Assembly: GCA_965207885.1 (NCBI GenBank)
Contig: OZ242311.1
Span: 5,280,001 to 5,344,000, forward strand
DNA: 64,000 nt
Reading direction: 5' to 3'
From: Candidatus Latescibacterota bacterium
GTDB lineage: Bacteria > Latescibacterota > UBA2968
The notes beneath the pieces are model-generated. The model was not told the DNA's origin. It was given only the letters and a program-made list of their open reading frames with translations, and did no database searches. This document shows, in pieces, positions 2,209 through 61,420 of the stretch. A program made the position numbers and the translations under genes. Each line of letters starts with the position of its first letter. Position 1 is the first letter of the stretch.

Positions 2209-2260
2209 GCTATATCTCCTTTTAGTTTTTGGTTATCGATCATATGCACATCTACCTATC

Positions 2261-2276
2261 TGCAATATCTGTGCCA
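2261..2276 (-). promoter_or_regulatory. Sigma54 (-24/-12) promoter of pspA
   Basis: Minus strand reads TGGCAC-AGATA-TTGCA, an exact consensus, about 50 nt upstream of the pspA ATG. pspA is classically sigma54-dependent. Confidence 0.85.
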
Positions 2277-2410
2277 AAACATCTTTCAGATTCTATCTTG
2301 TTGTTTTTTATATAAATAAAGATTTTAAGACACAAAAAAATCGCCTGATATTGGTGATAAAGACCAATGCAGGCGGTTAAATACACCGATAAAGGCGGTA
2401 ATCAAAATAA

Positions 2411-2442
2411 AAAAGGCTGCGATCTTTCGACCGCAGCCTTTT
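2411..2442 (-). terminator. Intrinsic terminator after the PorV-like gene
   Basis: AAAAGGCTGCG...CGCAGCCTTTT hairpin with T tracts on both strands. Confidence 0.8.
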
Positions 2443-2466
2443 GTGTATCTGGTGGGAGAGCTTCAC

Positions 2467-26049: not shown

Positions 26050-26065
26050 TGCAAAAACCGTGCCA
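26050..26065 (-). promoter_or_regulatory. Sigma54 promoter of the PmoA-family gene
   Basis: Minus strand reads TGGCAC-GGTTT-TTGCA, about 90 nt upstream of the ATG. Confidence 0.75.
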
Positions 26066-43147: not shown

Positions 43148-43969
43148 CTACTCCTCTGAGACATTCACATCCTCTTTGGGAAGCGCGTCCTCTGTACATA
43201 TCGAATCCAAGAATGGGTAAGATATGTGGTTTCGTTTTGCCTCGCGTCTTAAACGGAGTTGATAGAGTTCCTGCACACAACGCGCTTTTGTAGCTTCATC
43301 GAGCACAGCGAGGCAGTGTTGTTGAATATAGTACAGCGCATAGCCCGTTTCCACTTTTATGGGACCAATCACCTCACCTACCTCAGCGGCAAATAATAGG
43401 GACGCAACTTCAGCGGGCAAGTCTCGTCGGCTCTGGCGACCGAGATAACCACTTGCAGGGCGCGTGTGCTCATCGAGGGAATATTGACGCGCGAGGGTGT
43501 GAAAATCTCGCCCACCATCCTTGATCTGCATCGCAATCTCTTCGGCAATGTCCTGTTCATTGACCAGAATCCAGCATATTTCCCGACGTTCAGACGCCAG
43601 TTTCTGGCTTGCAAAATGCGTTTGAATCGCTTCAGTAGTGATTTGCGCTTTCAAACGCTCCTGGAGCATCTGATATTCAATTTCCCGTGCCATGTCAGTG
43701 AAGGTGATATTGCGTTGTGATAACCAGTTTTCCGTATCTTCAACACTTTCCAATCTGTTTTTGTACCGCCATTGGTCTATCCCCTTTTGCAGTTCATTTT
43801 GAGGAATTTTAATTTTTTCTCGTTGGGCGATTTGAAAGACCAGACCGCGTTGCGTAAAGAGCTCGTGCAAGCTGTCCTTGTTAGTCGCCCGCATTGATTT
43901 CACGATATGGGACAAGCGAATTTGTGTCTCGTTTATTTGAATGATGACGGGGTCAATTGAATTTGCCAT
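43148..43969 (-). CDS. PpiC-type peptidyl-prolyl isomerase associated with T1SS/bacteriocin export
   Basis: DFHTLARQYS, GYLG and GEVIGPI rotamase motifs. Starts 1 nt after the HlyD stop. Confidence 0.88.
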   Translation of the reverse strand: MANSIDPVIIQINETQIRLSHIVKSMRATNKDSLHELFTQRGLVFQIAQREKIKIPQNELQKGIDQWRYKNRLESVEDTENWLSQRNITFTDMAREIEYQMLQERLKAQITTEAIQTHFASQKLASERREICWILVNEQDIAEEIAMQIKDGGRDFHTLARQYSLDEHTRPASGYLGRQSRRDLPAEVASLLFAAEVGEVIGPIKVETGYALYYIQQHCLAVLDEATKARCVQELYQLRLRREAKRNHISYPFLDSICTEDALPKEDVNVSEE

Positions 43970-43970
43970 T

Positions 43971-45320
43971 TTATTTTTCAGCCTCTGGAGAAAGCGCGGC
44001 CAGGTCGCGCAATTGCCGCAGTGGATTGAGTGCGAGCATCAAAATGGACTGGCGGTCTGTTATGATTTCTGCCGCGCCCTTCATGCCAAACATAAATGCT
44101 TTTTCCTCGCCGTGTACAAGAATGGTCGTGTACTCCAGATCAATAATGCCTCTAAACACAGTTCCCGAACCGTCATCGCCCATTGCGTCAGGTGAAATCT
44201 GTCTCAAATAGCCGTGCTGGATGCCGTAGTCCTGAAATGGAAATGCTTCAAATTTGAGCTTTACCTTTTGTCCAGATGACAGCAGGCCCACGTCTTTATT
44301 TAATATCAGGGCTTCGGCTACAATCGGCGTCGAGGCCGGTGCAATAGTTACCAGTGTCTGGCCTTTATTGACCACTTGACCTGGTGTATTGACCAGAACT
44401 TGTGTGACGATTCCCGGTTCAGGTGCAAGAATTAGATCGATGTCTGCATCAACAGATCGATTAACCGTTTGTTTCGCTTGTTTGAGTCTGATTTCTGCAA
44501 TGTCATAAGCATTTTGGAAGTTTGCCCGAGTGCGTTCGAGTTCGAGTCGTTCTTCGAGAATTTGGCGTTTTAAGTCCTTTAGGGAAACCTCATAACGATT
44601 GATCTCTGCCATCCGCGCGGGCAGTTCTGCCAATGCGCTCAGATAGCGGACTTTGGCTTCATCGCGTGCCGCAAGGCTGATGAGTCTCTTTTCGTACAAT
44701 TTTTGGTTTTGTTCATATTGTTGTTTCAAATGTTCTACTTCTGCGGAACGGAATTGTATTTCGATCTCAAGGTCGGGGGGTTGAGACGTTTCTGTGTGTT
44801 TTCCAAGTGCTTCCCGGTAGGTCTGCATTGCTGTTTGCATGACGTGAACGCGATGCTCAAGCGCGGAGATGGTCTCTTTTGCCAAAATTCTTTTTTGCGG
44901 CAGGGTTTGTTGCAGATCAAATTCTGCTTTTTTGAATGCGATTTCTGCTTGTTCCAGTTCGCGGAACTCCTTGAGGGTTTCTTGCGAGCGGAGTCTGAAT
45001 AAGATCTGCCCTTCAGCAATCAGGTCCCCCGAATGGATAGCGATTTCCTGGATTTCGCCAGAACGCGGTGCCTGGATGTTCTGAACCTTTCCCAATGGGA
45101 CCAGACGAAATGGGGCTGTTGCGACAACATCGACCTGACCGTACCAGGCCCATGCTATGGAGATGGCAATAAAAAGCAGCAGAATATAAATAAGCGCGCG
45201 GCTGAAAAAAGGGTGTAATGATCCTAAAAACTCGATGGTGCTTTCGGCCAAATCCGTTTCGTTTTCAAGCGGTTTTTCGCGTGGTTCTATTGGCAATTTT
45301 TCAATTTGAGCTTCGGCCAT
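43971..45320 (-). CDS. HlyD family membrane fusion protein
   Basis: N-terminal TM, coiled coil, K.K.EAFPFQDYG...G...ISPDA and GM.G.AEI motifs. Confidence 0.93.
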   Translation of the reverse strand: MAEAQIEKLPIEPREKPLENETDLAESTIEFLGSLHPFFSRALIYILLLFIAISIAWAWYGQVDVVATAPFRLVPLGKVQNIQAPRSGEIQEIAIHSGDLIAEGQILFRLRSQETLKEFRELEQAEIAFKKAEFDLQQTLPQKRILAKETISALEHRVHVMQTAMQTYREALGKHTETSQPPDLEIEIQFRSAEVEHLKQQYEQNQKLYEKRLISLAARDEAKVRYLSALAELPARMAEINRYEVSLKDLKRQILEERLELERTRANFQNAYDIAEIRLKQAKQTVNRSVDADIDLILAPEPGIVTQVLVNTPGQVVNKGQTLVTIAPASTPIVAEALILNKDVGLLSSGQKVKLKFEAFPFQDYGIQHGYLRQISPDAMGDDGSGTVFRGIIDLEYTTILVHGEEKAFMFGMKGAAEIITDRQSILMLALNPLRQLRDLAALSPEAEK

Positions 45321-45358: not shown

Positions 45359-48325
45359 TTACACGACCTGCAATTGTTGTCCCGATAGATTGCAATAAAG
45401 TCCTTGTTCTGCGATGAGTGTATCGTGCGTGCCCTGTTCAATAATGTTCCCGTCATCCAGTACAAGGATCAAATCCGCATCTTTTACTGTGCTCACCCGG
45501 TGGGCGATGATAAACGCGGTCTTACCTTCCAGCATGGTGTCTAACCCTTCCTGAATCGCTCGCTCGGACTCTGTATCCAGAGCATTGGTGGCCTCATCAA
45601 AGATGATAATTTTGGGGTCGCCATATAGTGCTCTGGCAATGGACAGGCGTTGTCGCTGACCACCGGAAAGTCCCACACCCTGTTCCCGAATTTTGGTTTC
45701 ATATCCCATTGGCAGGTCTTTGATAAAGTCGTGGGCATAAGCGAGTTTGGAAACTTCCATCAAACGATCCATATCGACATCTTTGACCCCTATGGCGATA
45801 TTTTCGGTGATGGTGGCATTGAACATGACGGGTTCTTGCAAAACCATCCCCACCTGACGCCGCAACCATCCAGGATCAAATTCGCGCAGGTCTGTGTCAT
45901 CGAGGGTAACGCACCCCTCTGTGGGATCAAATAGTCGGGGTATGAGTTTTACCAGTGTTGTCTTGCCCGCACCGCTACGGCCTACTATGGCTACTTTCTG
46001 GCCGGACGATATGTCCAAATTTATGTCGCTTAAGACATAAGGTTCTGTCGATCCCGATCCATACCGGAAGAATACATCGTCAAATGCGATGTGTCCTTCT
46101 ACGTCTGTGAGTTGAACCGAATAGTTGCGGTTGCGCGATGACTCGGTTCGCATATCGTAGATATCGTTTAATCGGTCCAGCCCCATTTTTGCCAGTTGAA
46201 TCTGCGGCCACAGGTTAATCAATCCCATAATTGGTCCCAATACCCTGCCACTGAGCATATTGAATGCGATTAGTTGACCGACAGATAAGTCGCCCTGAAT
46301 GACCAGGTTCGCGCCATACCAGAGCACGATGGTGCTGCCCAAAACATTGTTTAGCTGTCCAAAAGACCCAAATAGCATATTTGTTTTGATTGCAGTAAAA
46401 CCAATTTTTATTTCCTGGGTCAAGCGTTCTTCCCAGGACCATCGCGTGGATTTTTCGACTGCGAGGGTTTTTATGACTTCAATGCCGCGTAGAGAATCAA
46501 TGAGTAAGGATGACCATTCTGAGCGGGCGAGAAAAGAGCGCTGGTTGATGGACTTGAGGATTGGGGTGTAGATTAAGGTCAGGATAATGCTAAACGGTAT
46601 GAATGCCAGAACATAGAGTGTCAAAGTGGTGTGGTAATAGAACATCAAGCCCAGATAGACAAAGATCATGATTGCATCAAGGACGGCTGAAATAGCCGTT
46701 TCTGTCAACAAGCTCCTCAAGTATTGGCTCTCTCGAAATCGCGTCATGATTTCACCGGTTCTGCGGAGGGCGAAAAACCGCATGGGCAGACGGAGGAGAT
46801 GGTGGTAGATGTGTGATAACATCGAGATGCTGATGCGCGCTCCCACATATCCAATCAGGTAGTTGCGCAGTGATGATGTGGCGATCCGAAATAAGGTGAT
46901 GATGATCATGCCTAAGAGCAGGAGATTGAGCAGACTATTATCCTGGTGAACGAGGACTTGATCGAGGATCATCTGGGTGAACAGAGGAGAAGCAAGGCCA
47001 AAGAGGTTCAGTACAAGGGAGGCGATCAGGATTTCGATGAGAATGCCGAGGTATGGACGGGCGAGTGGGAAAAACCGCCTGAACGATGATTTTCTTCCCC
47101 TGTATCTTGCGACCTTGTCGGTGTATTCAAGTATTAAGGCGAGTTTGGACCACTTGTCTTCAAATTCTTTGCGGGAGATTTTTCGGCGTCCAAGTGCAGG
47201 GTCGGCGATCCATGCGTATTTTGAACTGATGCGATACAGAACGACAAAGTGATAGCCTTCCCAGTGTGCGATAAGCGGCAGGTCTCTTTCTCCGATTTCA
47301 CTGTATCCAATCCGCACGCCGCGCGTTAAAAAGCCCAGGTTTTCAGCGGCTTCGGCAAGTGCGGATAGGGATGTGCCTTCCCGCGAGACATTGGCCATGT
47401 CTCGAAGTCGGTTTAATCCAATGGATTGTCCATAATATTGACAGATCATGCCGAGGCAGGCCGCGCCGCAATCGGTCTCATCGTGTTGCTTGATGTAGGG
47501 AAATGTGATGTAATTTCGCAGTTTTCGAGGGCTTTGATCAGAGATGCTATTTTCAGGCTCGATTTCTATTGTTTTAATTCGACCATTTTGCGGCACTGTC
47601 TCGCGCGGCTCTTCTTGTTCATTTTTCTCGAAGATCCGAATGAGTTGGGGAGCACTTTCAAGCACTCTGGCAAAGTCGCTGTGCGAAAGGGTGTAGAGCA
47701 CGACTTCTGTTTCTGTTTCAATAGTGATTTCATCACACTGCATGCCGCTAAAAAAGTCGCCCGGCTTTAACCTTTTGGAAGGCTGGTTCCCCTCTCTCAA
47801 CTGCAAGGTTCCGCGGCCAATGAGATAGAGTTTTTTTGCTTCTTCATCCTGCCATACTGCTTTTTCTCCTTCCGCAATAACCTTCCGCGCCAGACATTGG
47901 AAAAAGAGCTGCATAACCTCCTGGAGGTTTACGGTGTCCAGCGCTATGAATTTTGTGAAGTTTCGATAGGCGATGTCTCGCACTTGATCGAGCAGGTATG
48001 GAGTCAGTTCCCGATGCTCTGATACGAGGGCGTGAAAGTTGCCCTGAGAAATTTTCAGTACGATTGAGGATTCAACCGCTCGAACCGTTGCCCTGCGCGG
48101 TTTGCCCGTGAGCAATGCGCCTTCTCCGCAATGGTCGCCGGGAAAGAGATAACCGAGGGTCTGCATCTCATCATTGCTGTCTCTCGTTAAAACCCTGAGT
48201 TGCCCGGATACGACATAGTAAAAGCAATCGCCCCTGTCGCCTTCATAAAACAAAACCTCTCCGAGATTGACCTGCATTTCCTCTGCATGAGGTCTCAGAG
48301 AGGCATATAGATCGGTTCGTTTCAT
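45359..48325 (-). CDS. Peptidase C39-containing ABC exporter with N-terminal cNMP-binding domains
   Basis: QHDETDCGAACL (catalytic Cys), HWEGYHFVV, Walker A GRSGAGKT, LSGGQRQR and FDEAT motifs. Confidence 0.95.
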   Translation of the reverse strand: MKRTDLYASLRPHAEEMQVNLGEVLFYEGDRGDCFYYVVSGQLRVLTRDSNDEMQTLGYLFPGDHCGEGALLTGKPRRATVRAVESSIVLKISQGNFHALVSEHRELTPYLLDQVRDIAYRNFTKFIALDTVNLQEVMQLFFQCLARKVIAEGEKAVWQDEEAKKLYLIGRGTLQLREGNQPSKRLKPGDFFSGMQCDEITIETETEVVLYTLSHSDFARVLESAPQLIRIFEKNEQEEPRETVPQNGRIKTIEIEPENSISDQSPRKLRNYITFPYIKQHDETDCGAACLGMICQYYGQSIGLNRLRDMANVSREGTSLSALAEAAENLGFLTRGVRIGYSEIGERDLPLIAHWEGYHFVVLYRISSKYAWIADPALGRRKISRKEFEDKWSKLALILEYTDKVARYRGRKSSFRRFFPLARPYLGILIEILIASLVLNLFGLASPLFTQMILDQVLVHQDNSLLNLLLLGMIIITLFRIATSSLRNYLIGYVGARISISMLSHIYHHLLRLPMRFFALRRTGEIMTRFRESQYLRSLLTETAISAVLDAIMIFVYLGLMFYYHTTLTLYVLAFIPFSIILTLIYTPILKSINQRSFLARSEWSSLLIDSLRGIEVIKTLAVEKSTRWSWEERLTQEIKIGFTAIKTNMLFGSFGQLNNVLGSTIVLWYGANLVIQGDLSVGQLIAFNMLSGRVLGPIMGLINLWPQIQLAKMGLDRLNDIYDMRTESSRNRNYSVQLTDVEGHIAFDDVFFRYGSGSTEPYVLSDINLDISSGQKVAIVGRSGAGKTTLVKLIPRLFDPTEGCVTLDDTDLREFDPGWLRRQVGMVLQEPVMFNATITENIAIGVKDVDMDRLMEVSKLAYAHDFIKDLPMGYETKIREQGVGLSGGQRQRLSIARALYGDPKIIIFDEATNALDTESERAIQEGLDTMLEGKTAFIIAHRVSTVKDADLILVLDDGNIIEQGTHDTLIAEQGLYCNLSGQQLQVV

Positions 48326-49074: not shown

Positions 49075-50430
49075 CTATTCAATCAATTCTTTGACATCGT
49101 GAATGCGAATATCAACCTCAGGCAAGTGTTTATTCAGAATGTCTATGATGTAATCTTTCGGACCGAGAAAAAGCATGATCATATTCTCCTGTACAAAGAA
49201 TTTTTCGAGAAAAGCTCGCACCTCAACATCGGTGACGGAATCATAACCGCCTTTGTGAGTTGGCGAATTATAGATGGCTTGATATACCTCATTGTCCAGT
49301 CTTCGCTGTAGTGTCAACAACTCATGAGCATAGATGACATTGCGACTTTCACGCAACTCTTTTATTGCCGCCCAAAAGCGGGGATTGTCGGGCAGTTTTC
49401 GGATGAAATCGGACATTTTTACGATCAACGCTTCACTATTATGGAATTGAGGATCAGCAAAAATTTCAAGAAACATGATTCCCTCTGATGATGACAAATT
49501 GCAAGAAGGGCCATAGACCAATCCCAACTCTTCTCTGAAATGTGTATTGAGCAAGCCTTGAGTACCATATCGTACAAGTATCCTGGATATCATTTTTGGA
49601 ATATAGCTCTCTTCTTTTTCTAAATTTCCACAAGGTATCAGCCAAAAACAAAAAATACTTTTTACGCCTGAAAAATTAAATACAAAAGCTGTAGGACCGA
49701 TATTATAATCCGTTATTGGAAATTTCGGTGAATGCACAAACCCCCCTGCCTGTCCGTGTTGCAGCAAGTGGGTCTCTCGCTTTTCTATAACTGGACGAAG
49801 TAGTTTCGAGATCTCAGTAGAATCGAGGTCTGAAATCACCTTAAAAAACACCACGTCTGTTTTCAGCAGTTGATCATAATATTGCGTGATGTCCTTAAGC
49901 GAGAGATTTTTGAGCGTTTTTAAAGATATATGTTTCTTTATGCCTTTTGTTTTTGAAAGTGCAAAATTTTTTATAAACGTATAATCCCGCAGGTAAGCCC
50001 GGTAATCAGCAACCAGCCCTTTTTTTATATCTTGTAATTCAGACTCAGAAAACTCGAGATTATATATGAAATCGCGGACTATTTTTATAGATCTGCCACT
50101 ATTCTCAGATAAGCCATAAATGGATATTGTTCGGTATAGGGTATTAGTAGTGATATTCAGACGAGTACCTAATGCTTCTAATTGATCCATATACCCCTGC
50201 TTTTGGACAGCCTTCCAGATCAATTGTGAGACTACCATTGCAAGCCCAGCTTGATATGGCTGTTCCGCACCGCTCCCAGCTCCGAGGAAGATAATCTCAA
50301 TTTTGGTCAATGGCGCGCGTTTGTCCTGGCGATAAAAAATTTGGTGGTTAGGTATCTCTGCAAAAGCGGGCAGGATACTAACCACGCAGCACAGAGCAAA
50401 ATTAAGTATCACTTTCAGAAACATATTCAT
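49075..50430 (-). CDS. M16 peptidase-like subunit lacking the catalytic motif
   Basis: Signal peptide, AGS..E...AGLA and REELGLVY motifs. No HxxEH. Confidence 0.75.
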   Translation of the reverse strand: MNMFLKVILNFALCCVVSILPAFAEIPNHQIFYRQDKRAPLTKIEIIFLGAGSGAEQPYQAGLAMVVSQLIWKAVQKQGYMDQLEALGTRLNITTNTLYRTISIYGLSENSGRSIKIVRDFIYNLEFSESELQDIKKGLVADYRAYLRDYTFIKNFALSKTKGIKKHISLKTLKNLSLKDITQYYDQLLKTDVVFFKVISDLDSTEISKLLRPVIEKRETHLLQHGQAGGFVHSPKFPITDYNIGPTAFVFNFSGVKSIFCFWLIPCGNLEKEESYIPKMISRILVRYGTQGLLNTHFREELGLVYGPSCNLSSSEGIMFLEIFADPQFHNSEALIVKMSDFIRKLPDNPRFWAAIKELRESRNVIYAHELLTLQRRLDNEVYQAIYNSPTHKGGYDSVTDVEVRAFLEKFFVQENMIMLFLGPKDYIIDILNKHLPEVDIRIHDVKELIE

Positions 50431-50549: not shown

Positions 50550-51887
50550 TCACGGAGGTGACATTTTCTTTTTTGACACCGTTAGAGAATAGGTTATGGA
50601 ATTGTCATCCGTCATGTACTGGTCTATAATGCGAGGGATGTCTTCTCTGCGAATGGATTTGAGGTCTTTTATCAATTTGGGATATAGGAGGGGATCGTTG
50701 GCGTGGGCAAATGCCTGTCCAAATGAATAAGCCATGTTTGAACGGTTGTAAAATGCGGAATACATTGTGGTCAACTGCTGGTTTCGAGCCGTATTGAGTT
50801 CTGCGTCGGAGATGGATTTCAGATTCTCCAACTCTTTGCTGATCATGTTCTGGAACCTATTTCTGGACGTATCATAGGGTAGTTCTGCATAGCAATGCAT
50901 CAAGCTAAATCCTTTATAGCTGCTGAGTTCCACCTGAAAAACACTTGCGAGCTTAGAACCAACGACGGTAGATCGCAAAGAATTTGAGGACTTATCCAAG
51001 ATATAGTCCAGAATAAGCAGGCCAGCGTAGTCGCGATGTCCTAAATTGGGTGTGTACCAGCCCTTTCTGAATATAGTAACAATGAGATTTTTTAAAGTGT
51101 GTTTTAATCTTTTTCCGAGCACTTCACGGTTCGGATATTGGGGAGAATACGGTTTGCTCGGTATTTGCTCATTGCCATAAGCTTCGTCCAATTTTTTCAA
51201 GACCTGGTCAACATCCACATCGCCGATCACGACAATCAGTCTCTTTTGACGGCGCAGAAAATTCTCATAATACGCTTTCAAATCATCAGATTCGAGTTGT
51301 GTAATAAAAGCCTCAGTACCAAGGTCATTAAAATTCTTTTTTTTGTAAATTAAAGAAAAAAAAGAATTCTTGTGTCTAAGTTTTAAACTTGATAATCTAT
51401 GACTTCTTTCCGTCAGTACGATTTTCTTTTCTTTTTTTATAATTTCCTCATTGATCACTGTGTTGTAATATCTTTCCGAATCTATCTTAACCGCGAGATC
51501 AAACTTATCCTTCGGAAATTTTAGTATAAAGCATGTAAAATGATAATCAGTAAAGGCTTTTTGTTCTCCTTCATTATCTGCGATAATTTGATTGAGTTTC
51601 CCCGGCGCATAGCTGCCAATGCCCGCTATGACATGCTCTAAAAAATGTATCCGTCCTTGTTGACCTTCCTCTTCATCTGCCGAGCCAGCATCATAAAAGG
51701 TATGGTATTCAAAGGTTGGGATTGTTCGATCTACAACAATAACAGCGTCGAGGTTGGGATTGATGGTATAATATTGCGCGACGAGTTCTTCAGATAATGT
51801 GGCTGTGCCAACAAGATCGTAGGCAACGCAAATGCCCGTTGGCAAGACGCATACAAGGAATGAGGTGAGTGCGTAAGTTTTCATCAT
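50550..51887 (-). CDS. M16 (insulinase/pitrilysin) metallopeptidase, catalytic subunit
   Basis: AGSADE..G..G..HFLEH, AFT and EKKIVLTE motifs, signal-peptide-like N-terminus. Confidence 0.85.
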   Translation of the reverse strand: MMKTYALTSFLVCVLPTGICVAYDLVGTATLSEELVAQYYTINPNLDAVIVVDRTIPTFEYHTFYDAGSADEEEGQQGRIHFLEHVIAGIGSYAPGKLNQIIADNEGEQKAFTDYHFTCFILKFPKDKFDLAVKIDSERYYNTVINEEIIKKEKKIVLTERSHRLSSLKLRHKNSFFSLIYKKKNFNDLGTEAFITQLESDDLKAYYENFLRRQKRLIVVIGDVDVDQVLKKLDEAYGNEQIPSKPYSPQYPNREVLGKRLKHTLKNLIVTIFRKGWYTPNLGHRDYAGLLILDYILDKSSNSLRSTVVGSKLASVFQVELSSYKGFSLMHCYAELPYDTSRNRFQNMISKELENLKSISDAELNTARNQQLTTMYSAFYNRSNMAYSFGQAFAHANDPLLYPKLIKDLKSIRREDIPRIIDQYMTDDNSITYSLTVSKKKMSPP

Positions 51888-52059: not shown

Positions 52060-52656
52060 TCAGTTACCTACTCTCGTATTATCTTGTCCGGTTGTCTCAA
52101 ATCCATCAAAAAGTCCATTCTCATCCTCCTCACCCCCCTCATCATTGGTACCACAATTACCATCACAATTCTCATCATCACAATTCTCACAATTCTCATT
52201 ATCATCTTCTCCCTCACCTTCTCCCTCACCTTCTCCCTCACCACAATCCCCACTGTCGCCATCCTCTGGTCCTGCCATCTGATCACTATAAAAAAACTCC
52301 TCAGCAGCATCTGGATTAACAGGCTGGTTTATTTGCGTCCAGTCGGGTAACTGATCCCCTTCCCTATACATCTCGAGTGGTGATATCTGTGGTCCATTGT
52401 CCCCAAAATTAGGTGATGGTGGTAGCCCAGGTTCAGGAGAACCAAAAACAGAGGTGACAATATCCCAGATGGTAGGTCCCGTGTTCCAATCTATTGGGTC
52501 TTCATCTTTGCATTTACTTTTCCCCCCATCCCCACCCCGAGCCATGTTCATTTCTTGTATTGAAATGGTCTCGGAGAGGATAGAGAGCGGTTTACAAGTA
52601 AGTCCTGTAATGGATGTGGTGATACCTTCACTCTGTTCAGAAATATTTTTTGACAT
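52060..52656 (-). CDS. Double-glycine-leader acidic Cys-rich protein (putative exported RiPP precursor), 198 aa
   Basis: AGGAG RBS. ETISIQEMNMARGG fits the [I/L]S..E[M/L]....GG leader consensus. Core is Asp/Glu/Gly-rich with 6 Cys. Confidence 0.75.
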   Translation of the reverse strand: MSKNISEQSEGITTSITGLTCKPLSILSETISIQEMNMARGGDGGKSKCKDEDPIDWNTGPTIWDIVTSVFGSPEPGLPPSPNFGDNGPQISPLEMYREGDQLPDWTQINQPVNPDAAEEFFYSDQMAGPEDGDSGDCGEGEGEGEGEGEDDNENCENCDDENCDGNCGTNDEGGEEDENGLFDGFETTGQDNTRVGN

Positions 52657-52667
52657 AATACTATCTC

Positions 52668-53538
52668 CTAGGTAGTGTCTGAAAAGTAAGCTTTGAAGAG
52701 TTGTCTGATACAGGCCAGCTTGACCATAGTGAGAAAATGAGTCGCCTTTTTTTCAAATCGGGTCACAATCCGTCGGCAGTGTTTAAGCCAACCAAAGAGA
52801 CGCTCCACGATATTGCGTTTGGCATATAATCTTTTATCACACTTAGGCCGTGGTCCTCTCTTACGCCGTTTTCTGCCTTTGGGAATCGCCTTGTTTGGGA
52901 TAGCAGCCTTGATACCCCGTTTGCGTAGATAGACTCTGATGCGTGAGACATCATAAGATTTATCAGCTACCAGATACTTGGGTCGGTTTCTTGGACGCCC
53001 TCGTTTGGTGGGTATGCATACCTTTGACAGTAGCCTTTCAGCCTGTGTGGATTCTGACTGGTTACCAGGGAGAAGATCCACTGCTAAAGGATGCCCGACT
53101 GCATCGCAAAGAAGATGGATTTTCGTGGTCAAACCGCCACGAGAGCGTCCTAAAGCGTGATCTGGGGGCTCTTCTTCACCCTTTTTGCCCTTTTTTTTTC
53201 GCTCCTGCCGCGGCTTGTGTGGCTCGAATATGGGTTGCATCCATCATCCAGGTCGCATAATCTAAAAGACCATCTTCACCCAATTTGAGATGTAGCTTTT
53301 CTACAATGCGATCAAAGGTGCCATCCTGTTTCCATTTGCAGAATCGGTCAAAGGCTGTCTGCCAAGGACCATATCGTTCTGGCAGGTCGCGCCAAGCTGC
53401 ACCTGAACACAATATCCAGAAGATCCCGTTGAATAATGTACGATCATCCCGACGGGGACGACCCATCTTCTTCGGCGGTGGGAACAGGTCTTGGATCAGA
53501 TGCCAAGCCTCGTCGCGCAGTTCATATCTCCGTTGCAT
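52668..53538 (-). CDS. IS5 transposase expressed by programmed -1 frameshift (orfA 53176-53538, orfB 52668-53240)
   Basis: WRDLPERYGPWQT, MDATHIRA, GRSRGGLTTKIH, ADKSYD and RNIVER.F..LK..RRI.TRFEK motifs. A9 slippery run at 53191-53199. Confidence 0.92.
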
Positions 53539-53642: not shown

Positions 53643-54586
53643 TCACTTAAGAAATTTTGCTGTCTCGCCATCTTTACACGTACGATCTCTGTCGTGAAAA
53701 AATAGAAAGTTGCGAAAAAACGTATTGACGATTGTCATATAACAGGCATTCTGTTTTCTTTTTTGAGCTTCTGGTGGAAGATCCGTGAACTCCTGGATGC
53801 GCTCAGGTGTCACCCCATGGATGTCGCGAATGGTATTGAACAGACCAATCAGATCTGTTTCACAGCAGTTATTCGCTTTAGCCAGCACGCTCAAATACAC
53901 ATCATCAACATGCGATAATGCCTTTGCAATTCGGGTGCGAGTCTCACTGACAGACTGAACATCCGAAAGCCTATCAGGCGCATCCCAACACGGTGTCACG
54001 GATTTGATCTTACGCAGCACGGCCAGATGGTGGTCTTCGCGGATAATCTCCACAGCAAAACTACTGGGATAGACGGACAGCCAGTTCTCGACAATTTGCT
54101 TCTCATAAGACCTTCTGAAATCGTCCAGAATGACCAGACCACCAATCTTGATCTGGTCATAAACCTGGTAAAGGCATGCCTCCCGACCTCGCAAGGTATA
54201 GACTGGCGGACCATCAATAACCACGCAATCTATCTCTTCCTTCCAAAACACCCCATCTTCATAAGTCAAAAATTCCGTATCTCCATAAGATTCAAGGGTA
54301 ATTGGACGATGTTTGATCGATAGATTGCGCTTATCCCAGAATGTTTGCATCAGACTCAGGGTCTCTGCAAAATTCCGCCAGTCGCCTTCTATAGACAGAA
54401 CCTCGGTTCCAAAAACGCCATCGCCAGACGGATAGAACTCGGACCACTTCCAAATTCGAGAATTCTTTCTACTGGAGACATCTGAAGAAGCGTGGTTGCG
54501 ATTCTCTCAAACGCTGTCTCACCAATGCTCCAGCCCGCGTCCAGATTAAGCCGATCCGGTATTTTGAGGTCGGAAATTTTATGCAT
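53643..54586 (-). pseudogene. Class I SAM-dependent methyltransferase, frameshifted near 54405-54415
   Basis: ILEFGSGPSS in ORF 54389-54586. The other frame continues TEVLSIEGD...VIDGPP...GG.VILDD..R..E. One base is missing. Confidence 0.8.
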
Positions 54587-54589
54587 GCC

Positions 54590-56032
54590 TTACTTCTTTA
54601 CTTCAGATACCACTTCCAGATCATATCGTCGCTGCAACAAAGACGCATCTTCCTCTGCAATCTCCATACACATCTCCATCGCCAATTCATAGCGATAGCG
54701 CGTCTGTTCACAAGCAACAGGGTTGGGATACATCGGATCACCCGTTGTCGTCCGCGCCTCCCAAAGACATCCGCCACCACACAGGTTGCGCGCCCAGCAC
54801 GTCTTGCACTCAGGACGATTATTCACATTGAACTGCGCGTCAAAATGCTGCTGCTTTTCGCGGTCAATACCCGCAAACACATCACCCATCTTAAACTCGG
54901 GCGCATCGGCCAAACTCGAACAAAAATAAATCGACCCATCTGCTGCAATAGCCAGATACTGCTTGCCACCCAGGCATCCATGACAGGATTTCTGGCGCGT
55001 CAACAGTTTCTGAATCCGCGGATCAAACTCTTCACTCTCTTCACCATTTAGAATGGCTTTGAGCGCACGCCTACTCCGCTTGTAAATTTGCTGCTTCAAC
55101 GCAGGTATGTGTTCTTCCCGAATCGCATAAGGCGCATCCGGTGAAACAACAGCCGGACCAACAAGCGCGTTATCAGTACCCAGAGAACGCAACGCATCGG
55201 CAATCTGATCCTCGTCCATATCATACGCTGTCATAACAGCCTGCAAATACACCCTCTCGGGAACCTCAGCAGTCAATTTCTGTACATTCTTTGCCACAAC
55301 ATCATAAGTGCCAGAACCATTGTGAAACTTGCGAATGCGGTCCTGTGTCTGACGCCCACCATCCAGACTGACCTTAATTTGAAACTTTTCATCAACCAAA
55401 AACTGCTTCATCTCGTCGGTCAACAACGTGCCATTGGTCACAATGCCAAAACCAACCTGCACACCCAATCGCGCTGATAGGGATTTGGCAAATGGGACAA
55501 GCTCCTGCATCAATGGAAAATTCAGAAGCGGCTCTCCGCCAAAAAAATCAATCTGGCATCGTCCCAATACCTGAGCCTCGGCAACAATCCAGCGTATGGC
55601 TTGCTCGGCAACATCTATTTGCATCAGCATCGCCTTACCGCCATAATCTCCACCGTGGGCAAAGCAATAAGCACACTGAATATTGCAAGTATGGGAAACG
55701 TGCAAAGACACCTGCAACCGATCTGTCTGCGATACGCCACAGGCTGCCACCCCTTCTGTCGTCGGCACACTGGATACCAGAGGCAAAGCACCATCCGAAA
55801 TCAAACCCACCTGGGACAGTTCCTCAATGGCCTCGACAATTTCTTCTGCCTCGTATTGATCAGCCAACCTCTGAACAACCTGCGAAACAGACAAACCCTC
55901 GCAACACTCTAAAATCGCCTCGAAAAGAGTATCCAATTTAAAAAATAGACCCGTCTCAATCTGATAGACAATCGGTTGTTCTTGCTCTTCTGTTTGAAAA
56001 AGATGCATTTCACATTTCTGAATGCACAGCAT
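54590..56032 (-). CDS. Radical SAM/SPASM peptide maturase with a probable N-terminal RRE (CteB/PapB/QhpD-like)
   Basis: CNIQCAYC, FFGGEPLLN, TNGTLL and SLDG motifs. SPASM C..C.GG...DG.IY.C...C..CWARNLCGGGC...C. GAGGAG RBS 8 nt before the ATG at 56032. Confidence 0.93.
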   Translation of the reverse strand: MLCIQKCEMHLFQTEEQEQPIVYQIETGLFFKLDTLFEAILECCEGLSVSQVVQRLADQYEAEEIVEAIEELSQVGLISDGALPLVSSVPTTEGVAACGVSQTDRLQVSLHVSHTCNIQCAYCFAHGGDYGGKAMLMQIDVAEQAIRWIVAEAQVLGRCQIDFFGGEPLLNFPLMQELVPFAKSLSARLGVQVGFGIVTNGTLLTDEMKQFLVDEKFQIKVSLDGGRQTQDRIRKFHNGSGTYDVVAKNVQKLTAEVPERVYLQAVMTAYDMDEDQIADALRSLGTDNALVGPAVVSPDAPYAIREEHIPALKQQIYKRSRRALKAILNGEESEEFDPRIQKLLTRQKSCHGCLGGKQYLAIAADGSIYFCSSLADAPEFKMGDVFAGIDREKQQHFDAQFNVNNRPECKTCWARNLCGGGCLWEARTTTGDPMYPNPVACEQTRYRYELAMEMCMEIAEEDASLLQRRYDLEVVSEVKK

Positions 56033-56056
56033 AGCACGCACTCCTCAAAACCCAAA

Positions 56057-56245
56057 TCACTTAGCCTGATCATCAACCTGTTCGAAATCGTCCCAATCGT
56101 CATCATCGGGAAAGGGCAGAGGGGGAACGCCAAAATCACCGGAGGGACAGAGCACTTCAAAACTATGCACAGTTTGGTACATAAGGATGCTACCTTCTTG
56201 ATCTATCGTTCCATTGATCAAAGTCAACTTACGTCGCGTTGTCAT
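56057..56245 (-). CDS. Putative RiPP precursor peptide, 62 aa
   Basis: AAGGAG RBS. First gene after the sigma54 promoter and directly upstream of the rSAM gene. Single Cys in CPSGD and an acidic tail PDDDDWDDFEQVDD. Confidence 0.75.
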   Translation of the reverse strand: MTTRRKLTLINGTIDQEGSILMYQTVHSFEVLCPSGDFGVPPLPFPDDDDWDDFEQVDDQAK

Positions 56246-56291
56246 GTTACTCTCCTTGATAATGCAAAAATCTTAGATGCCGTTACTATAT

Positions 56292-56307
56292 TGCAAGATC
56301 CGTGCCT
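56292..56307 (-). promoter_or_regulatory. Sigma54 promoter of the RiPP operon
   Basis: Minus strand reads AGGCAC-GGATC-TTGCA (GG-N10-GC), about 46 nt upstream of the precursor ATG and next to a bEBP gene. Confidence 0.8.
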
Positions 56308-56545: not shown

Positions 56546-59500
56546 CTATCTCAACCCCAAACGATTCATCTTTCTATACAAGCTGGCACGCACCAACCCC
56601 AGTTCTTCGGCCGTACGCTTAATATTACCCTCGTATTTTTCGAGCGCATCCATAATCAACCGTCTCTCATACTCCTGCATACGATCTTGTAAACGCCCTC
56701 CTGCTTGCGTGTGGGCATCCGCCCGTGCAGACAAGTGATATTCGACAAAGATACCCGACACAGCGTGAATGACAGCTTCTGAAAACAAATCAGGCGTAAT
56801 ATCACCCTCTTCTTCTGACAATGCTACCGCACGTCGAATTTCATGCTCCAACTCGCGCACATTACCAGGCCAGTTGTAACTTGTGAGTGCCCTGATTGCA
56901 CCCACTGTCAACCCTCCAACCGACTTTCTTGCCTCTTCTTTTGCTCGAATGAGCAGATGTCCAGCCAATAATGGCACATCTTCAAGGTGTTCTCGTAAAG
57001 GTGGCATATCGATCTGAATCCCGTGCAACCGGTAATACAAATCTTCGCGGAAAGAACCGTTTTCAACTTCTTTTTTTAAGTCTCGATTGGTCGCTGCAAT
57101 AATGCGTACATCCACTTCGCGATCCTCTGTTTCTCCCACACGCCGAATCTCACCTTCTTGCAACACCCGCAACAAACTTCTTTGCAACTGCGGCGGAGCA
57201 TCGGCGATTTCATCGAGAAGAACCGTGCCCCCATCAGCCGCTTCAAAAATCCCCTTATGATCTTCACTCGCGCCAGTAAACGCGCCTTTTTTGTGCCCAA
57301 ACAACTCACCCTGCAACAACTCTGGTGATAGTGTAGCACAATTTTGTGACAAAAATCGTTGATCTTTGCGCCTGCTATTGTAGTGTATGGCACGCGCAGC
57401 CAACTCTTTGCCCGTACCTGTTTCGCCCTGCACAAGTACGGGAATATCACTTTGTGAAGCGCGTTCGATAAGCTGGTAAACCACCTGCATAGCATCACTC
57501 TGCCCGACCAGATCATCAAGCCGGTACCGCCTTTCGACCTGTTGCTGAAAATATTGTGCTTTCTCTTCCAGTTGTTCATACATCCTCGCATTGACCAGCG
57601 CCAGCCCCACCAGATTCGCAAAAGCCTGTAAAAACGTCTGATCTGCTTCAGAAAATGCGTTGTCAATACCGCGATGATCCACATATAGCGCACCGATAAC
57701 ACCTTCCTTAACATGAAAAAGAGGCACACACAATACAGACCGAATGTGGTAGTCTATCACGCTCTGATACCGATTTAATCTTTCGTCTGTCTGGGCATCC
57801 ATGCTCAAAACGGGTTCATTGGTCTCAATAACGCGGCGAATAATACCCCGACTCAGTTCTTCTGCATCATCTGCTTCTACATTGTAGTAGCGCACGGCAT
57901 CAACCACAAAGCCTTTTGGGGTCTCATTTTTAATCGCAATAAGCACCCGCTCTGCTGGATAGACAGCCAACAAATTACCCAGAGTTCGATCCAATAACAC
58001 CTTGACATCGCGCTCTGTGGTCAATTCGTGGCTCACTTCGTAAAGCAAGCTCAAACGATCGACAGACAATGTATCGACTGAAATCCCAGAAATAGATGCG
58101 GCACCTGCTTGCGCGATAGCAGGCAAGTCCTCCTTGCGAGAAGATTTATCCAATTGATTTAATAAAATCCGTGTTTTCTCCAGAAAATAAGACATCTCCA
58201 TCTCTTCAAACGCCTGTTTTGCCGCTTCAAGATGTACTTGCGCTTTTGGTACATCATCGCGCTCGAGATAAAACTCCCCTGCTATCAACAGCGCACGCGC
58301 CCAGTGATCGCCTTTAGATTCTCTTCGGCATTCAATCGCCTGCTCAAAAGCCTCTTCAGCCTCAGCTATCCGCCCTGCATGAGCAAAAGCCGCACCAATA
58401 CCACAATACACCAAGGGCAATATGCCCGTGAACATACCCGATGTTTGTTGCGTACCTTCACTGGCTTTTTCTGCCCATTCAAATGCTGTTTCTGTATCTC
58501 CCATTCTCGCAGCAACCGTTGCCGCAATCGCATAAGCGCGATAGATATAATCTCTTCGCGATATTTGCAAAAACCCCTCCACCGAGGTCTCGGCATATTC
58601 CAATGCCTCGGCAAAATCACCGCGTTCCAGTGCCAATTCTCCCAGATAAAGGAAATTCACTGCCTCCCCATACACAAGTCCTTGCTTCCTCCACTCACCA
58701 ATGACCTCATAGCAAACGGCTTCTGTACGGGTGAGATCTCCCAGATAAAAATAAACCCTTTGAAGCGAATTAAGTGCCCCAATGCGATGATGTTCAAATC
58801 CAAGCTGTTGAGATGTTTTTACAGCCACTTCTAGATATTCTTTGGCTGTTTCAAATCGAAAGTCCACCAATGCAGCTTGACCTTCTCGAACTTGTATAAA
58901 AGCGTCTTTCTGCGGATCTATCAACACACGACGTTTCTCTATTTCCAGACGCATATACTCAAGTGCTTCTTTGTGCCGTCCAGATACATCGCACAAATAA
59001 GCCAAACTGCCCAATGCTTGAACTTCTCCGTCGAGATCATCCAGTTCACGATAAAGTCGCAATGCCTCCAGCATATATTCTTTTGCAATTTCTCCATGTT
59101 GAAGTACGCTGTGAATACCACCTTCATTCCACAAAATACGCGCTTTCAAATCTCTCCGGTCATCGGGCAATAACGCCTTTGCCTCGCCTAAAAGTTCCAA
59201 TGCTTTATTGTGTTGACCACAATTGCGCAACGTATCTGCATAATCGCACAAAAAGTCGATAGCATTTACTTGTGATTCAAAAACGCCATCCGCCTGCTGT
59301 ACAGCCTCAAACCGTCTCAATGCCTGGCGATAAGCGTGTTTTTCCAATGCTTTTTTGCCCGCCATGAGCGTATATTTCACAGCCTTATCTCGTTCTTCTG
59401 CCGCCGCAAAATGATTCGCCAATTCTTCTATCAATTCTTCTGCATCTTCCGAATCTTCCAGAGCATTGCCAATTTCTCGATGCAACAACCGCCGCCGCAC

Positions 59501-61420
59501 ATCTTGCATGCGGTCGTAAATTGCACGCCGACACAACTCCTGTGAAAACCGATATCGATCTTCAGCCTCTCCACAAGCCTCCAAAAGCCCTTCTGCAATA
59601 AGATAGTCCAGCACATCTAACAGTTCTAACTCATCACCGCGCCAAACTGCGGCCAATAGTTCAAAAGAAAAATCACTCAGAAAAACACAGGCGTATTCCA
59701 GCACCCGACGTTGCACAGCAGGCAGAGTAGCTACGCGCCTGTACAAAACCTCTAAAATGCCATCAGACAACAGGGTTTCGGGAAATTCTCCCCACTGCCA
59801 ATCGCCGGACACATTCTGCCAAACCACATCGGCATTGACCAGTGTCCTCATTGCCTCTAAGACAAACAGGGGTTGTCCACCCGTTTCTCTGAATAGGGTT
59901 TGCAAGGCATCAGAAGGTATGGACCGCTCCCCCAACATCGATGCCGCTAAATATCCCACCTCTTCTTGTTGTAAATACTCCAACTGAATCTGAGTCGCCT
60001 CAGCAAGTTCATTGCTGTGTATAAAATTCTCAATTTCCTCTGAAAGCGGTTCCAGGTTAGACCATCGACAAGTCAGGCATAACAAAAACGGACACGGTTC
60101 TGGATCGCGCAACACATACTGCAAAAATTCCAGAATCAATTCATCAAGCCATTGAATATCTTCCAAACTCAATACAATGGGCTGTTTCTGTCGCAGACGC
60201 TTTAATAACTGCGACCAATGCTCCATAATAGAAAACTTGTCCGTCTCTAATGAATCGGGCACTCTCCCCACCAAATCCGTCGTCTTTACCTGCTGAAAAG
60301 CATCAATTAACGCACCGTATATTTGTCCGCCCTCTTCTCGTCCTGCACCTTTCAAACACAGAAAATCATGGATCAAAGCATCGCCCAAGAGTTCTTCAAT
60401 CAGTCTCGTTTTACCCACACCAGACTCACCCGAGATCAGAACTACGCGCTGTTTGCCAGCCTGTACATCCTGCAACATCGCACCCAGTATCTTCATTTCA
60501 GATTCCCGCCCGACAAATTGTGGGCGCACAACTTTTCTATGCACATCGCGCTGCTCGTCCTCCAGCAGCACAAGTTCCGATGGTGCTACATTATTTAAGG
60601 CTTGCACCAACTCCCCTGCCGATTGATAACGATCAACACGATCCTTTGCCAGCAACCTCAGCACAATTTGTTTCATCTGTTCGGGAACAGCGATATTGAC
60701 TTCGTCTATTGGTAGCGGCATCTTTCGAATATGCTTCAGAATAACTGATATGGGATTTTGTCCAGAAAAGGGCGATGCGCCCGTGAGCATCTCGTATAAA
60801 ATCACGCCCAATGAGTACAAATCTGACCGATGATCCACCCACAACCCTTTACCCTGCTCTGGCGACATATATTCTGCTGTACCAATCGTTGCACCCGTCT
60901 GAGTAATGGAAGCACCGTGCAAATGCCTGAATTTCGCCAGCCCCAGATCCAGAATCGTGGTCTCAATCCCCTCTTCTGTTTCCAAAACCATAATATTGGA
61001 TGGCTTGAGATCGCGATGCACCGCACCCTGAGCGTGGACATAAGCCAACCCCTCGGCAATTTGTTGTATCAAATCAAAAAAGTGAGACGCCCGAAATTGC
61101 TCTAACAGTACACGATCAGCAATTATCTTTTCCAATGTCTTTCCGGGCAAATATTCCATTGTAAAATAGGGGCGATCTTCGGCAAAGCCCCAAGTATATG
61201 TGCGCACCAGGCGCGGGTGCTGAAATCTGTTCAACACTTGAAATTCTCTGTGAAAACGGCGGTACACAGCCTTCTGATCCACCATGGTATTCAAGATTTT
61301 GAGCGCGCACTCCTGGCCTTGCTCCAGGTCTAACACCCGATAGACTTCGCCCATGCCCCCGGTTCCCAGGTGCGCCTGGATTTGGTATTTGTTGTCGAGA
61401 ATGGTGCCGATTGCAAACAT
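56546..61420 (-). CDS. Ser/Thr kinase-AAA ATPase-TPR-GAF-sigma54 activator-Fis HTH fusion
   Basis: GTGGMG, HRDLKPSN, DLGLAK, YMSPEQ; FVGRESE and GESGVGKT; GAF SVLCVPL; GETGTGKE, GAFTGA, FREDLYYRL and WPGNVRELE; C-terminal HTH. Confidence 0.93.
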   Translation of the reverse strand: MFAIGTILDNKYQIQAHLGTGGMGEVYRVLDLEQGQECALKILNTMVDQKAVYRRFHREFQVLNRFQHPRLVRTYTWGFAEDRPYFTMEYLPGKTLEKIIADRVLLEQFRASHFFDLIQQIAEGLAYVHAQGAVHRDLKPSNIMVLETEEGIETTILDLGLAKFRHLHGASITQTGATIGTAEYMSPEQGKGLWVDHRSDLYSLGVILYEMLTGASPFSGQNPISVILKHIRKMPLPIDEVNIAVPEQMKQIVLRLLAKDRVDRYQSAGELVQALNNVAPSELVLLEDEQRDVHRKVVRPQFVGRESEMKILGAMLQDVQAGKQRVVLISGESGVGKTRLIEELLGDALIHDFLCLKGAGREEGGQIYGALIDAFQQVKTTDLVGRVPDSLETDKFSIMEHWSQLLKRLRQKQPIVLSLEDIQWLDELILEFLQYVLRDPEPCPFLLCLTCRWSNLEPLSEEIENFIHSNELAEATQIQLEYLQQEEVGYLAASMLGERSIPSDALQTLFRETGGQPLFVLEAMRTLVNADVVWQNVSGDWQWGEFPETLLSDGILEVLYRRVATLPAVQRRVLEYACVFLSDFSFELLAAVWRGDELELLDVLDYLIAEGLLEACGEAEDRYRFSQELCRRAIYDRMQDVRRRLLHREIGNALEDSEDAEELIEELANHFAAAEERDKAVKYTLMAGKKALEKHAYRQALRRFEAVQQADGVFESQVNAIDFLCDYADTLRNCGQHNKALELLGEAKALLPDDRRDLKARILWNEGGIHSVLQHGEIAKEYMLEALRLYRELDDLDGEVQALGSLAYLCDVSGRHKEALEYMRLEIEKRRVLIDPQKDAFIQVREGQAALVDFRFETAKEYLEVAVKTSQQLGFEHHRIGALNSLQRVYFYLGDLTRTEAVCYEVIGEWRKQGLVYGEAVNFLYLGELALERGDFAEALEYAETSVEGFLQISRRDYIYRAYAIAATVAARMGDTETAFEWAEKASEGTQQTSGMFTGILPLVYCGIGAAFAHAGRIAEAEEAFEQAIECRRESKGDHWARALLIAGEFYLERDDVPKAQVHLEAAKQAFEEMEMSYFLEKTRILLNQLDKSSRKEDLPAIAQAGAASISGISVDTLSVDRLSLLYEVSHELTTERDVKVLLDRTLGNLLAVYPAERVLIAIKNETPKGFVVDAVRYYNVEADDAEELSRGIIRRVIETNEPVLSMDAQTDERLNRYQSVIDYHIRSVLCVPLFHVKEGVIGALYVDHRGIDNAFSEADQTFLQAFANLVGLALVNARMYEQLEEKAQYFQQQVERRYRLDDLVGQSDAMQVVYQLIERASQSDIPVLVQGETGTGKELAARAIHYNSRRKDQRFLSQNCATLSPELLQGELFGHKKGAFTGASEDHKGIFEAADGGTVLLDEIADAPPQLQRSLLRVLQEGEIRRVGETEDREVDVRIIAATNRDLKKEVENGSFREDLYYRLHGIQIDMPPLREHLEDVPLLAGHLLIRAKEEARKSVGGLTVGAIRALTSYNWPGNVRELEHEIRRAVALSEEEGDITPDLFSEAVIHAVSGIFVEYHLSARADAHTQAGGRLQDRMQEYERRLIMDALEKYEGNIKRTAEELGLVRASLYRKMNRLGLR

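Follow-up and report, generated by a model that had tools for sequence, protein, structure and literature searches.

A single-cysteine peptide family encoded beside a radical SAM-SPASM gene in one Latescibacterota genus: candidate precursors of a thioether-bridged peptide

What would a radical S-adenosylmethionine (rSAM) enzyme make of a 62-amino-acid (aa) peptide that offers it a single cysteine? The question is raised by a locus in a 64,000-nucleotide (nt) stretch of the genome of a Candidatus Latescibacterota bacterium (contig OZ242311.1, positions 5,280,001 to 5,344,000 of the forward strand; hereafter the window, numbered from its first letter). An initial annotation of the window had taken a small open reading frame (ORF) for the precursor of a peptide that is made on the ribosome and modified after translation (RiPP), with one thioether ring between Cys and Asp in a Cys-X3-Asp (CX3D) motif. 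The best overall reading of the present analysis, to which we assign a probability of about 0.6, is that the ORF belongs to a family of single-Cys precursors for a thioether of the ranthipeptide/sactipeptide type under sigma-54 control. The cross-link is probably located elsewhere than in the proposed Cys-X3-Asp. The module comprises the following features, in the direction of transcription:

56546..61420, minus strand: 1624-aa regulator with Ser/Thr kinase, STAND AAA, TPR, GAF, sigma-54 activator and HTH domains (Pfam), directly 5' of the precursor
56293..56306, minus strand: sigma-54-type -24/-12 promoter element GGCACGgatcTTGC, with the pattern GGCAC-N5-TTGC
56252..56257, minus strand: Shine-Dalgarno sequence AAGGAG, 6 nt 5' of the precursor ATG
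56057..56245, minus strand: precursor peptide ORF, 62 aa plus stop (basis: ORF list, homologous loci and codon-position differences)
56168..56236, minus strand: leader residues 4-26 (KLTLINGTID...), with predicted binding to the RiPP recognition element (RRE) of the maturase (complex model and invariant residues)
56147..56149, minus strand: codon for Cys33, which is invariant (33/33 loci) and presumed to donate the sulfur
56129..56146, minus strand: hypervariable six-residue cassette PSGDFG, which contains Asp37 (variable residue at +4, no third-position excess)
56108..56128, minus strand: V-P-x-x-P-F-P motif, residues 40-46 (V40, P41, F45 and P46 invariant; strong third-position excess)
56060..56107, minus strand: acidic tail DDDDWDDFEQVDDQAK (D48 invariant; D49, D50, D52 and F54 in at least 90%)
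54590..56041, minus strand: rSAM-SPASM maturase with an N-terminal PqqD-like RRE (domain and family matches, structure match and alignment)

The 62-aa ORF is a genuine gene. Its length alone lies within chance, since 127 ORFs of at least 40 aa are listed in 16 kb, and other evidence was therefore sought. The sequence itself had been described correctly: the peptide starts with MTTRRKLTLING, has its single Cys in C-P-S-G-D and continues through PPLPFP to DDDDWDDFEQVDD, and the residues before the Cys (EVLC) contain no Gly-Gly site. Full precursors were recovered from 33 loci (the window copy, its two paralogues within that genome and 30 found in other genomes), and frame, Shine-Dalgarno site and sigma-54 element are retained in all of them, with a Shine-Dalgarno-like site within the last 20 nt before the start codon and the sigma-54 element 57-79 nt 5' of it. 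Pairwise differences at codon positions 1/2/3 amount to 1793/2033/3438 in the leader and to 368/232/1390 in the VPxxPFP codons. This excess at third positions indicates purifying selection in the precursor frame, from which the hypervariable cassette is excepted, the five codons after the Cys (1660/1074/1432) showing no such excess. The precursor itself matches no Pfam or NCBIfam model. The GGCAC-N5-TTGC pattern occurs five times in the window as against 0.75 expected, a number reached in none of 100 shuffles; the other exact matches, all on the minus strand, lie at 2262-2275, 4287-4300, 26051-26064 and 30055-30068.

The maturase, of 483 aa, begins 24 nt 3' of the precursor on the same strand (its true start is likely the ATG at 56032, with GAGGAG upstream) and consists of the RRE (residues 25-78), an rSAM core and a SPASM domain. 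Among NCBIfam models the top match is the SCIFF maturase (TIGR03974; 266.7 bits, cut-off 425), followed by QhpD (TIGR03906; 258.2 bits, cut-off 453), the nif11-type rSAM maturase (252.6 bits, cut-off 518.7) and PapB (NF047865; 229 bits, cut-off 340); the cyclophane-type families YhhB and FxsB score 89 bits (cut-off 445) and 75 bits (cut-off 370), respectively. Because those of its best matches whose chemistry is known all form Cys thioethers and its scores stay below the cut-offs, the enzyme is placed in the thioether-forming clade yet in no curated family. The closest solved structure is CteB (5wgg; E 1.5e-61, residues 23-455), and the CX3CX2C motif (C119/C123/C126) and the seven SPASM cysteines are invariant in comparison with 22 relatives, down to 28% identity.

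A model of the leader-RRE complex, proposed as a check in the initial annotation, scored 0.78 as against 0.00 for the best control, with the controls passed; in a benchmark, 58 of 80 solved complexes but only 2 of 110 mismatched pairs reached this score. Three runs agree in at least 46% of contacts, with a partner pLDDT of at least 48. The predicted contacts join leader residues 4-15 and 18-26 to RRE residues 24-78, the closest pairs being L7-G12 with enzyme residues 31-35, and the modelled leader also touches enzyme residues 346-349 and 455-480. Two features by which ranthipeptides and sactipeptides are recognized at class level are present, namely a thioether-clade rSAM-SPASM protein with an RRE and an adjacent Cys-containing precursor, whose leader is docked in the model; the third, a thioether from the Cys sulfur to C-alpha (sactipeptides) or to C-beta or C-gamma (ranthipeptides), is presumed. 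The adjacent thioether-type gene, the family matches, the CteB structure and the complex model all favour the earlier proposal that the peptide is an rSAM substrate, and we consider it very likely that the ORF encodes the precursor of the neighbouring enzyme.

The arrangement seen in the window, with the activator upstream and the rSAM gene downstream of the precursor, recurs in 32 of 32 loci outside it. Such constant association of a RiPP operon with both a sigma-54 promoter and a kinase-fused activator of 1,600 aa is, to our knowledge, unusual for RiPPs, no search for precedents having been made. The window's genome (6.23 Mb, one contig) carries two more rSAM copies, 94% and 93% identical to the one described here, each after a paralogous peptide. 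A scan with one genome per species yielded 56 loci: a close group of 31 from Latescibacterota metagenome-assembled genomes with 87-94% rSAM identity (one labelled Poribacteria and one "uncultured bacterium"), six of a sister group (42-53%), one C-terminal rSAM fragment (L058, ~64%) and 18 Bacillota ScfB loci (~30%), several of which have ordinary SCIFF precursors upstream. The peptide of the close group was found in 16 of 168 genomes of the phylum, in 38 copies and with two to three copies per genome. All 16 carriers belong to one genus, of which 15 of the 20 other members are positive, and none of 10 genomes from the rest of the family or of 137 from other families contains it; genomes of the carrier genus come largely from sponge and coral samples. 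A HMMER pass over 1.84 billion representatives gave just 20 matches at E ≤0.001, and the whole family is therefore small. In two loci (L005, 2480-2949; L026, 2535-3001), the D-run/F motif is the last element of the precursor, and an insert of ~300 nt, which contains a 52-aa ORF (MSVQ[KT]LIKKRD...), separates the precursor from the rSAM gene. Two distant Latescibacterota loci (L041, 1263-4050; L042, 9-2511) contain tandem rSAM-SPASM genes, 42-49% and ~25% identical to the query; in L041 a fragment of a sigma-54 activator lies upstream, as does a 55-aa ORF without the family motif.

Matches in RNA libraries are compatible with expression of the module as a unit. Sixteen runs cover shares of 0.05-0.15 of a 1.8-kb stretch, and in four runs, all sponge metatranscriptomes searched as contigs, most of the rSAM gene is covered at 85-99% likeness. 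One contig (X8; 2,587 nt, depth 161.6, from a relative ~90% alike) aligns to 54612-56104 and to 56201-56249. It carries the relative's precursor start together with the rSAM gene and is thus compatible with one transcript; the uncovered part of the precursor (~56108-56200) is uninformative because it is hypervariable.

Searched with a profile, 5.8 billion proteins yielded 260 matches at E ≤0.01, none with a Pfam domain and the named ones all called "hypothetical protein"; the best 120 were examined, and 119 of them fit the motif. Across the 33 loci the invariant residues are M1, K6, L7, L9, N11, G12, C33, V40, P41, F45, P46 and D48. Cys33, present in 33/33 loci, is also retained in a 21-row alignment that includes the sister group and is the only Cys in 102 of the 119 homologues. 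The spacing C-x6-VP holds in 119/119 matched homologues, the 120th having Ile-Pro at the same place, and in 32 of the 33 loci (x5 in L003). By eye, the aligned residue at Cys+16 is acidic in all 33 loci (Asp in 32, Glu in L032). At the boundary between leader and core, (G)G-Cys is frequent: Gly-Gly precedes the Cys in 40 of the 119 homologues, and G-G, G-S or G-A in 61. Five homologues (P0129, P0130, P0137, P0138 and P0125) combine a normal leader with a core that is out of frame or lacks Cys, which makes them copies in decay or products of misassembly. In a protein of 913 aa (P0132) the leader portion of the profile was also matched 11 times, and in one of 642 aa (P0134) five times; a repeat similar to the leader motif N-G-x-x-D-x-x-G-x-I may account for this.

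Position Cys+4, which in the window is Asp37, behaves in the opposite way to this frame. The initial annotation had itself named the comparison that bears on its ring, conservation of CxxxD versus WxD in homologues, and the CX3D ring fails it because the spacing of Cys and Asp is not conserved. Of the 33 loci, just three (the window, L018 and L033) have Asp at Cys+4, as do 17 of the 119 motif-fitting homologues from the database. This is the most variable position of the peptide, occupied in these homologues by Trp (37), Asp (17), Ser (12), Val (12), Thr (11) or Gly (10) and more rarely by Pro (8), Arg (8), Ala (2), Leu (1) or Phe (1). Even the two paralogues in the same genome, whose rSAM enzymes are 93-94% identical to that of the window, have Ser and Thr there.

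The sister group, whose rSAM enzymes are ~50% identical to those of the close group, shows which features persist at larger distance. The order activator-peptide-rSAM is the same, the activator is of the TPR-GAF-sigma-54 type, and a variant of the promoter pattern, GG[CT]A[CT]-N5-TTGC, is found in 4/4 loci. The leader motif L-x-x-I/V-N-G/A-x-x-D-x-x-G-x-I recurs in its peptides, as does one conserved Cys; the core reads C-x-W-P-x-F-x-x-L-P-P-P, with W+2 and F+5 after the Cys invariant, and is followed by a variable, non-acidic tail. Only residues L7, N11, C33 and P46 are invariant across both groups. Both also share the Cys and a P-x-L-P-x-P stretch 4-6 residues downstream of it, whereas the Asp run is confined to the close group, and the position of Asp37 is held by Pro, Trp or Arg. 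No acceptor residue common to the two groups was found beyond Pro and aliphatic positions, an outcome that hinges on a 2-residue gap, and no aromatic position is common to both under either alignment. Thr stands at +13 in about half of the sister-group peptides.

The following mechanism is proposed. Precursor and rSAM gene would be transcribed from the sigma-54 promoter, presumably driven by the upstream kinase-TPR-GAF activator, and the precursor would be the RiPP substrate on which the rSAM-SPASM enzyme, whose reading frame begins 24 nt downstream, acts. The leader (approximately residues 4-26, with the core K-L-x-L-I-N-G) would lie as a strand against the PqqD-like RRE, as CteA does in CteB. 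The single Cys33 would then donate its sulfur to one thioether made by the enzyme, by analogy with CteB, PapB and QhpD. The acceptor would not be Asp37, and its position would be set by the frame C-x6-V-P-x-x-P-F-P-(Asp run). Two options are considered: (i) a residue set by its position, within the proline-rich motif or beside it, linked through its C-alpha or an aliphatic side chain, in which case no conserved acceptor side chain would be needed; (ii) an Asp of the acidic run, which would close a ring of ~15-17 residues around the proline-rich loop, ~17 if the acidic residue at Cys+16 were used, and against which stands the sister group, where the acidic tail has no equivalent. A thioether from Cys33 to something other than Asp37 is, on balance, what we expect. 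Non-acidic acceptors have a precedent in the ranthionine motifs ACAGM, CAVD and CPLVL of CrpA (PMC13692751).

Several points weigh against this reading. The thioether is deduced from homology alone, and every NCBIfam score lies below the family cut-off, so that the enzyme, in no characterized family, could act otherwise. No side chain capable of acting as acceptor is conserved across both groups, Pro and aliphatic residues apart, and we know of little precedent for ranthionine links to such residues. The complex model places the leader alone; the core is not placed confidently, and the model hence does not choose an acceptor. As the CteB-CteA complex is already solved, successful docking signifies likeness rather than proof. 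No leader peptidase or exporter is conserved beside the module in the locus neighbourhoods examined. The RNA-library contigs fall short of proving transcription, since DNA may be present and the sequences are those of relatives.

South of the maturase gene, at lower coordinates, the window contains a second set of genes, on which part of the initial annotation relied:

53643..54586, minus strand: methyltransferase-like gene, frameshifted near 54407 and with its 3' end lost to an insertion sequence (IS), by comparison with the intact paralogous gene of L003 (302 aa)
52668-53538: IS4/5-family element, DUF4096 and DDE_Tnp_1 in two overlapping frames
52060-52656, minus strand: acidic protein of 198 aa whose leader, 42 residues long, ends in R-G-G; no Pfam or NCBIfam match
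50550-51887 and 49075-50430, same strand as the precursor: M16 pair
45359-48325, same strand as the precursor: cNMP-C39-ABC exporter
43971-45320, same strand as the precursor: HlyD
43148-43969, same strand as the precursor: PpiC-like protein (TIGR04500; 69 bits against a cut-off of 180)

How do other explanations fare? A PapB-like ranthionine between Cys33 and Asp37 is highly improbable. The C-P-S-G-D of the window copy and the place of PapB among the best family matches of the maturase (229 bits) speak for it, as does the tolerance of PapB for changes within CX3D, described in two reports (PMC10739248, PMC9413430); against these stand a PapB score short of its cut-off of 340, the Pro, Trp or Arg of the sister group, the rarity of Asp at Cys+4 (3/33 loci, 17/119 homologues) and the Ser and Thr of paralogues served by nearly identical enzymes. 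A reaction other than thioether formation, such as a C-C or C-O link on Trp, Phe or Pro, an epimerization or an oxidation of the Cys, would agree with a maturase that falls below every family cut-off and with the conserved aromatic residues near the Cys (the invariant F45; W+2 and F+5 in the sister group). Here the Cys might just be an anchor on auxiliary cluster I: in the CteB structure, the open site of this cluster is ligated by a substrate Cys that is not the cross-linking one (PMC6231123). Nevertheless, the cyclophane families reach 89 and 75 bits where the thioether families reach 229-267, and no aromatic position is shared by both groups. The triceptide-like cross-link on W-D-D, which had been left open as an alternative to CX3D, loses ground as well: among the 33 loci, 27 have the Trp, five have Arg instead and one lacks it; of the 119 homologues, 99 have the Trp and 10 carry Arg in place of Trp51; and no such tail occurs in the sister group. 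We regard a non-thioether outcome as a rather poor bet.

It is highly improbable that the ORF is not the substrate, being instead a small regulatory or accessory protein while the enzyme acts on, for example, the acidic 198-aa product. The link between ORF and rSAM comes from sequence and modelling, and the acidic protein is likewise rich in Cys and Pro; however, the ORF adjoins the rSAM gene in 33/33 loci and the acidic protein in two places only (the window and L023), and the complex model, whose controls are clean, has the precursor leader docked on the RRE, while the leader of the acidic protein is unrelated. A separate proposal concerns maturation and export by the downstream genes, with the M16 pair as leader peptidase, the C39-ABC/HlyD proteins for transport and the PpiC-like protein as proline isomerase. 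The genes in question are found on the precursor's strand at a distance of 2.7-13 kb downstream, G-G, G-S or G-A precedes the Cys in 61/119 homologues, and in the L023 contig, the sole other contig of this kind, the rSAM gene, the acidic-protein gene, M16a and M16b are directly adjacent. Conversely, the M16 processing raised as a possibility in the initial annotation finds no counterpart in five other complete genomes, where none of the 12 rSAM copies has an M16a homologue closer than 100 kb, the shortest distance being ~105 kb, and in the window's own genome one of three copies is near M16a. The proposed isomerization of prolines by the peptidyl-prolyl isomerase of the cluster has fared no better, as linkage of that gene to the module is not conserved. 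Moreover, M16 pairs occur elsewhere in the genome without a nearby precursor, the IS and the broken gene separate the two gene sets, and a double-glycine (C39-type) site is not constant in the family, the window copy having V-L and no Gly before the Cys. The cluster also has a candidate cargo of its own with a conserved double-glycine leader: the acidic 198-aa protein is probably the double-glycine cargo of the cNMP-C39-ABC exporter, and a more natural one than the 62-aa peptide. Processing by these genes is thus unlikely, and from sequence the M16/C39/PpiC-like cluster is treated as a putative neighbouring system.

The preferred reading, a thioether from Cys33 to an acceptor other than Asp37, can be set beside known systems. 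SCIFF/ScfB-CteB (thermocellin, in Clostridia) resembles the module in the combination of RRE, rSAM core and seven-Cys SPASM, in the closest structure, and in a precursor that is encoded just upstream with a short basic leader and often a Gly-Gly-Cys boundary. It differs in that the enzyme described here is ~30% identical to ScfB (266.7 bits against 425) and that its peptide has one Cys rather than six in 45 residues, includes a hypervariable cassette along with the proline-rich motif and the Asp run, and matches no NCBIfam or Pfam model; the true SCIFF precursors in our set (L043-L060) are quite different. Control by sigma-54 and an activator, and occurrence in a Latescibacterota genus rather than in Bacillota, are further differences. 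PapB/PapA (freyrasin) likewise has a thioether-forming rSAM-SPASM enzyme of the same clade. PapA carries repeated CX3D motifs, whereas the one that the window copy happens to hold is single and unconserved, and the PapB score is below the cut-off; CX3D is named as the PapB motif in PMC10739248. QhpD, the second-best family match (258.2 bits, below 453), forms thioethers between Cys and Asp or Glu and relies on an RRE with a leader (PMC13692751). Its substrate is a dehydrogenase subunit, unlike a 62-aa single-Cys peptide, and no dehydrogenase genes were seen in the module among the window ORFs and the neighbouring loci. The three ring sizes of QhpC provide a precedent for links from Cys to acidic residues beyond CX3D. 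In the CrpC/CrpA system of methanogens, ranthisynthases of the clade use non-acidic acceptors near the Cys (PMC13692751); CrpA, however, is a 28.8-kDa protein with many motifs, and CrpC is likened here by description alone. Triceptide/cyclophane RiPPs (YhhB and FxsB type) share rSAM-SPASM maturases and aromatic-x-polar triads, and differ by family scores far under their cut-offs (89 and 75 bits against 445 and 370), by a W-D-D Trp present in 27/33 loci and by the absence of the acidic tail from the sister group.

The variable peptide segment, the activator C-terminus and the rSAM enzyme have mean pairwise distances of 0.55, 0.29 and 0.09, respectively, in the window and the other close-group loci; the high likeness of the rSAM copies among paralogues might reflect gene conversion. 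Co-variation was computed for 32 loci, with L009 dropped because its activator is cut by a contig end. Peptide distance does not follow rSAM distance (r -0.04), and peptide and activator distances, given rSAM distance, have a partial r of 0.23 that none of 2000 permutations reached. Co-evolution of peptide and activator was set aside as an explanation, since the loci are related, and common inheritance of linked genes suffices. A bolder joint reading, which we hold to be improbable, would make each module a signal and its sensor: the activator would recognize, via the hypervariable cassette, the mature peptide from its own module, much like a pherotype, and the peptide would carry a new kind of cross-link, in which the single Cys is stapled over the proline-rich loop either to an aliphatic or backbone carbon or, in a ring of ~16 residues, to the Asp run. 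In a remote variant, which applies to the close group only, the peptide could act on the sponge host. The proline-rich motif and acidic, Trp-containing tail of this group resemble eukaryotic proline-rich and acidic "DDW"-type ligand motifs.

In the literature, antiSMASH "ranthipeptide" clusters are mentioned for sponge-associated Latescibacterota, and the available portions of these papers name no precursor and call the function unknown (PMC12993501, PMC11832590). A search for the precursor family gave such antiSMASH-level mentions and no description, although supplements may list clusters of this kind. The precursor family is here defined by 260 database homologues, an invariant frame and its regulatory wiring. 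Single-Cys, proline-rich and acid-tailed precursors with a hypervariable cassette were found in one genus only. With a single Cys, the peptide would be about the simplest possible substrate of a CteB-like enzyme, for which a single -2 Da event would suffice to define the reaction, and natural variation in the hypervariable cassette lends itself to probing how much the enzyme tolerates. The case also illustrates that a CX3D reading drawn from a single copy is unsafe.

Some observations concern the downstream genes in their own right. The frameshift in the methyltransferase-like gene is a 1-nt deletion near 54407 relative to L003. A 302-aa gene of this type follows the rSAM gene in 12 of the 32 other loci, with a weak Pfam match (Methyltransf_24, E 0.003, below the cut-off), and a longer peptide tail (DQ-A/V-D-D/E/N-...) mostly accompanies it. 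In the L023 counterpart of the acidic protein (2141-2614, plus strand), the leader shows 84% conservation, but the core, rich in Cys, Pro and acidic residues, is completely different; in the window this core includes C-E-N-C-D-D-E-N-C-D-G-N-C. The N-termini of M16a and M16b are hydrophobic and, by eye, signal-like, in which case the pair would act outside the cytoplasm. The M16a/M16b pair occurs twice more in the window's genome (L061, 8760-11568; L062, 7542-11194), with 57-69% identity and no precursor nearby, and one of these two pairs is accompanied by a 190-aa zinc-ribbon protein.

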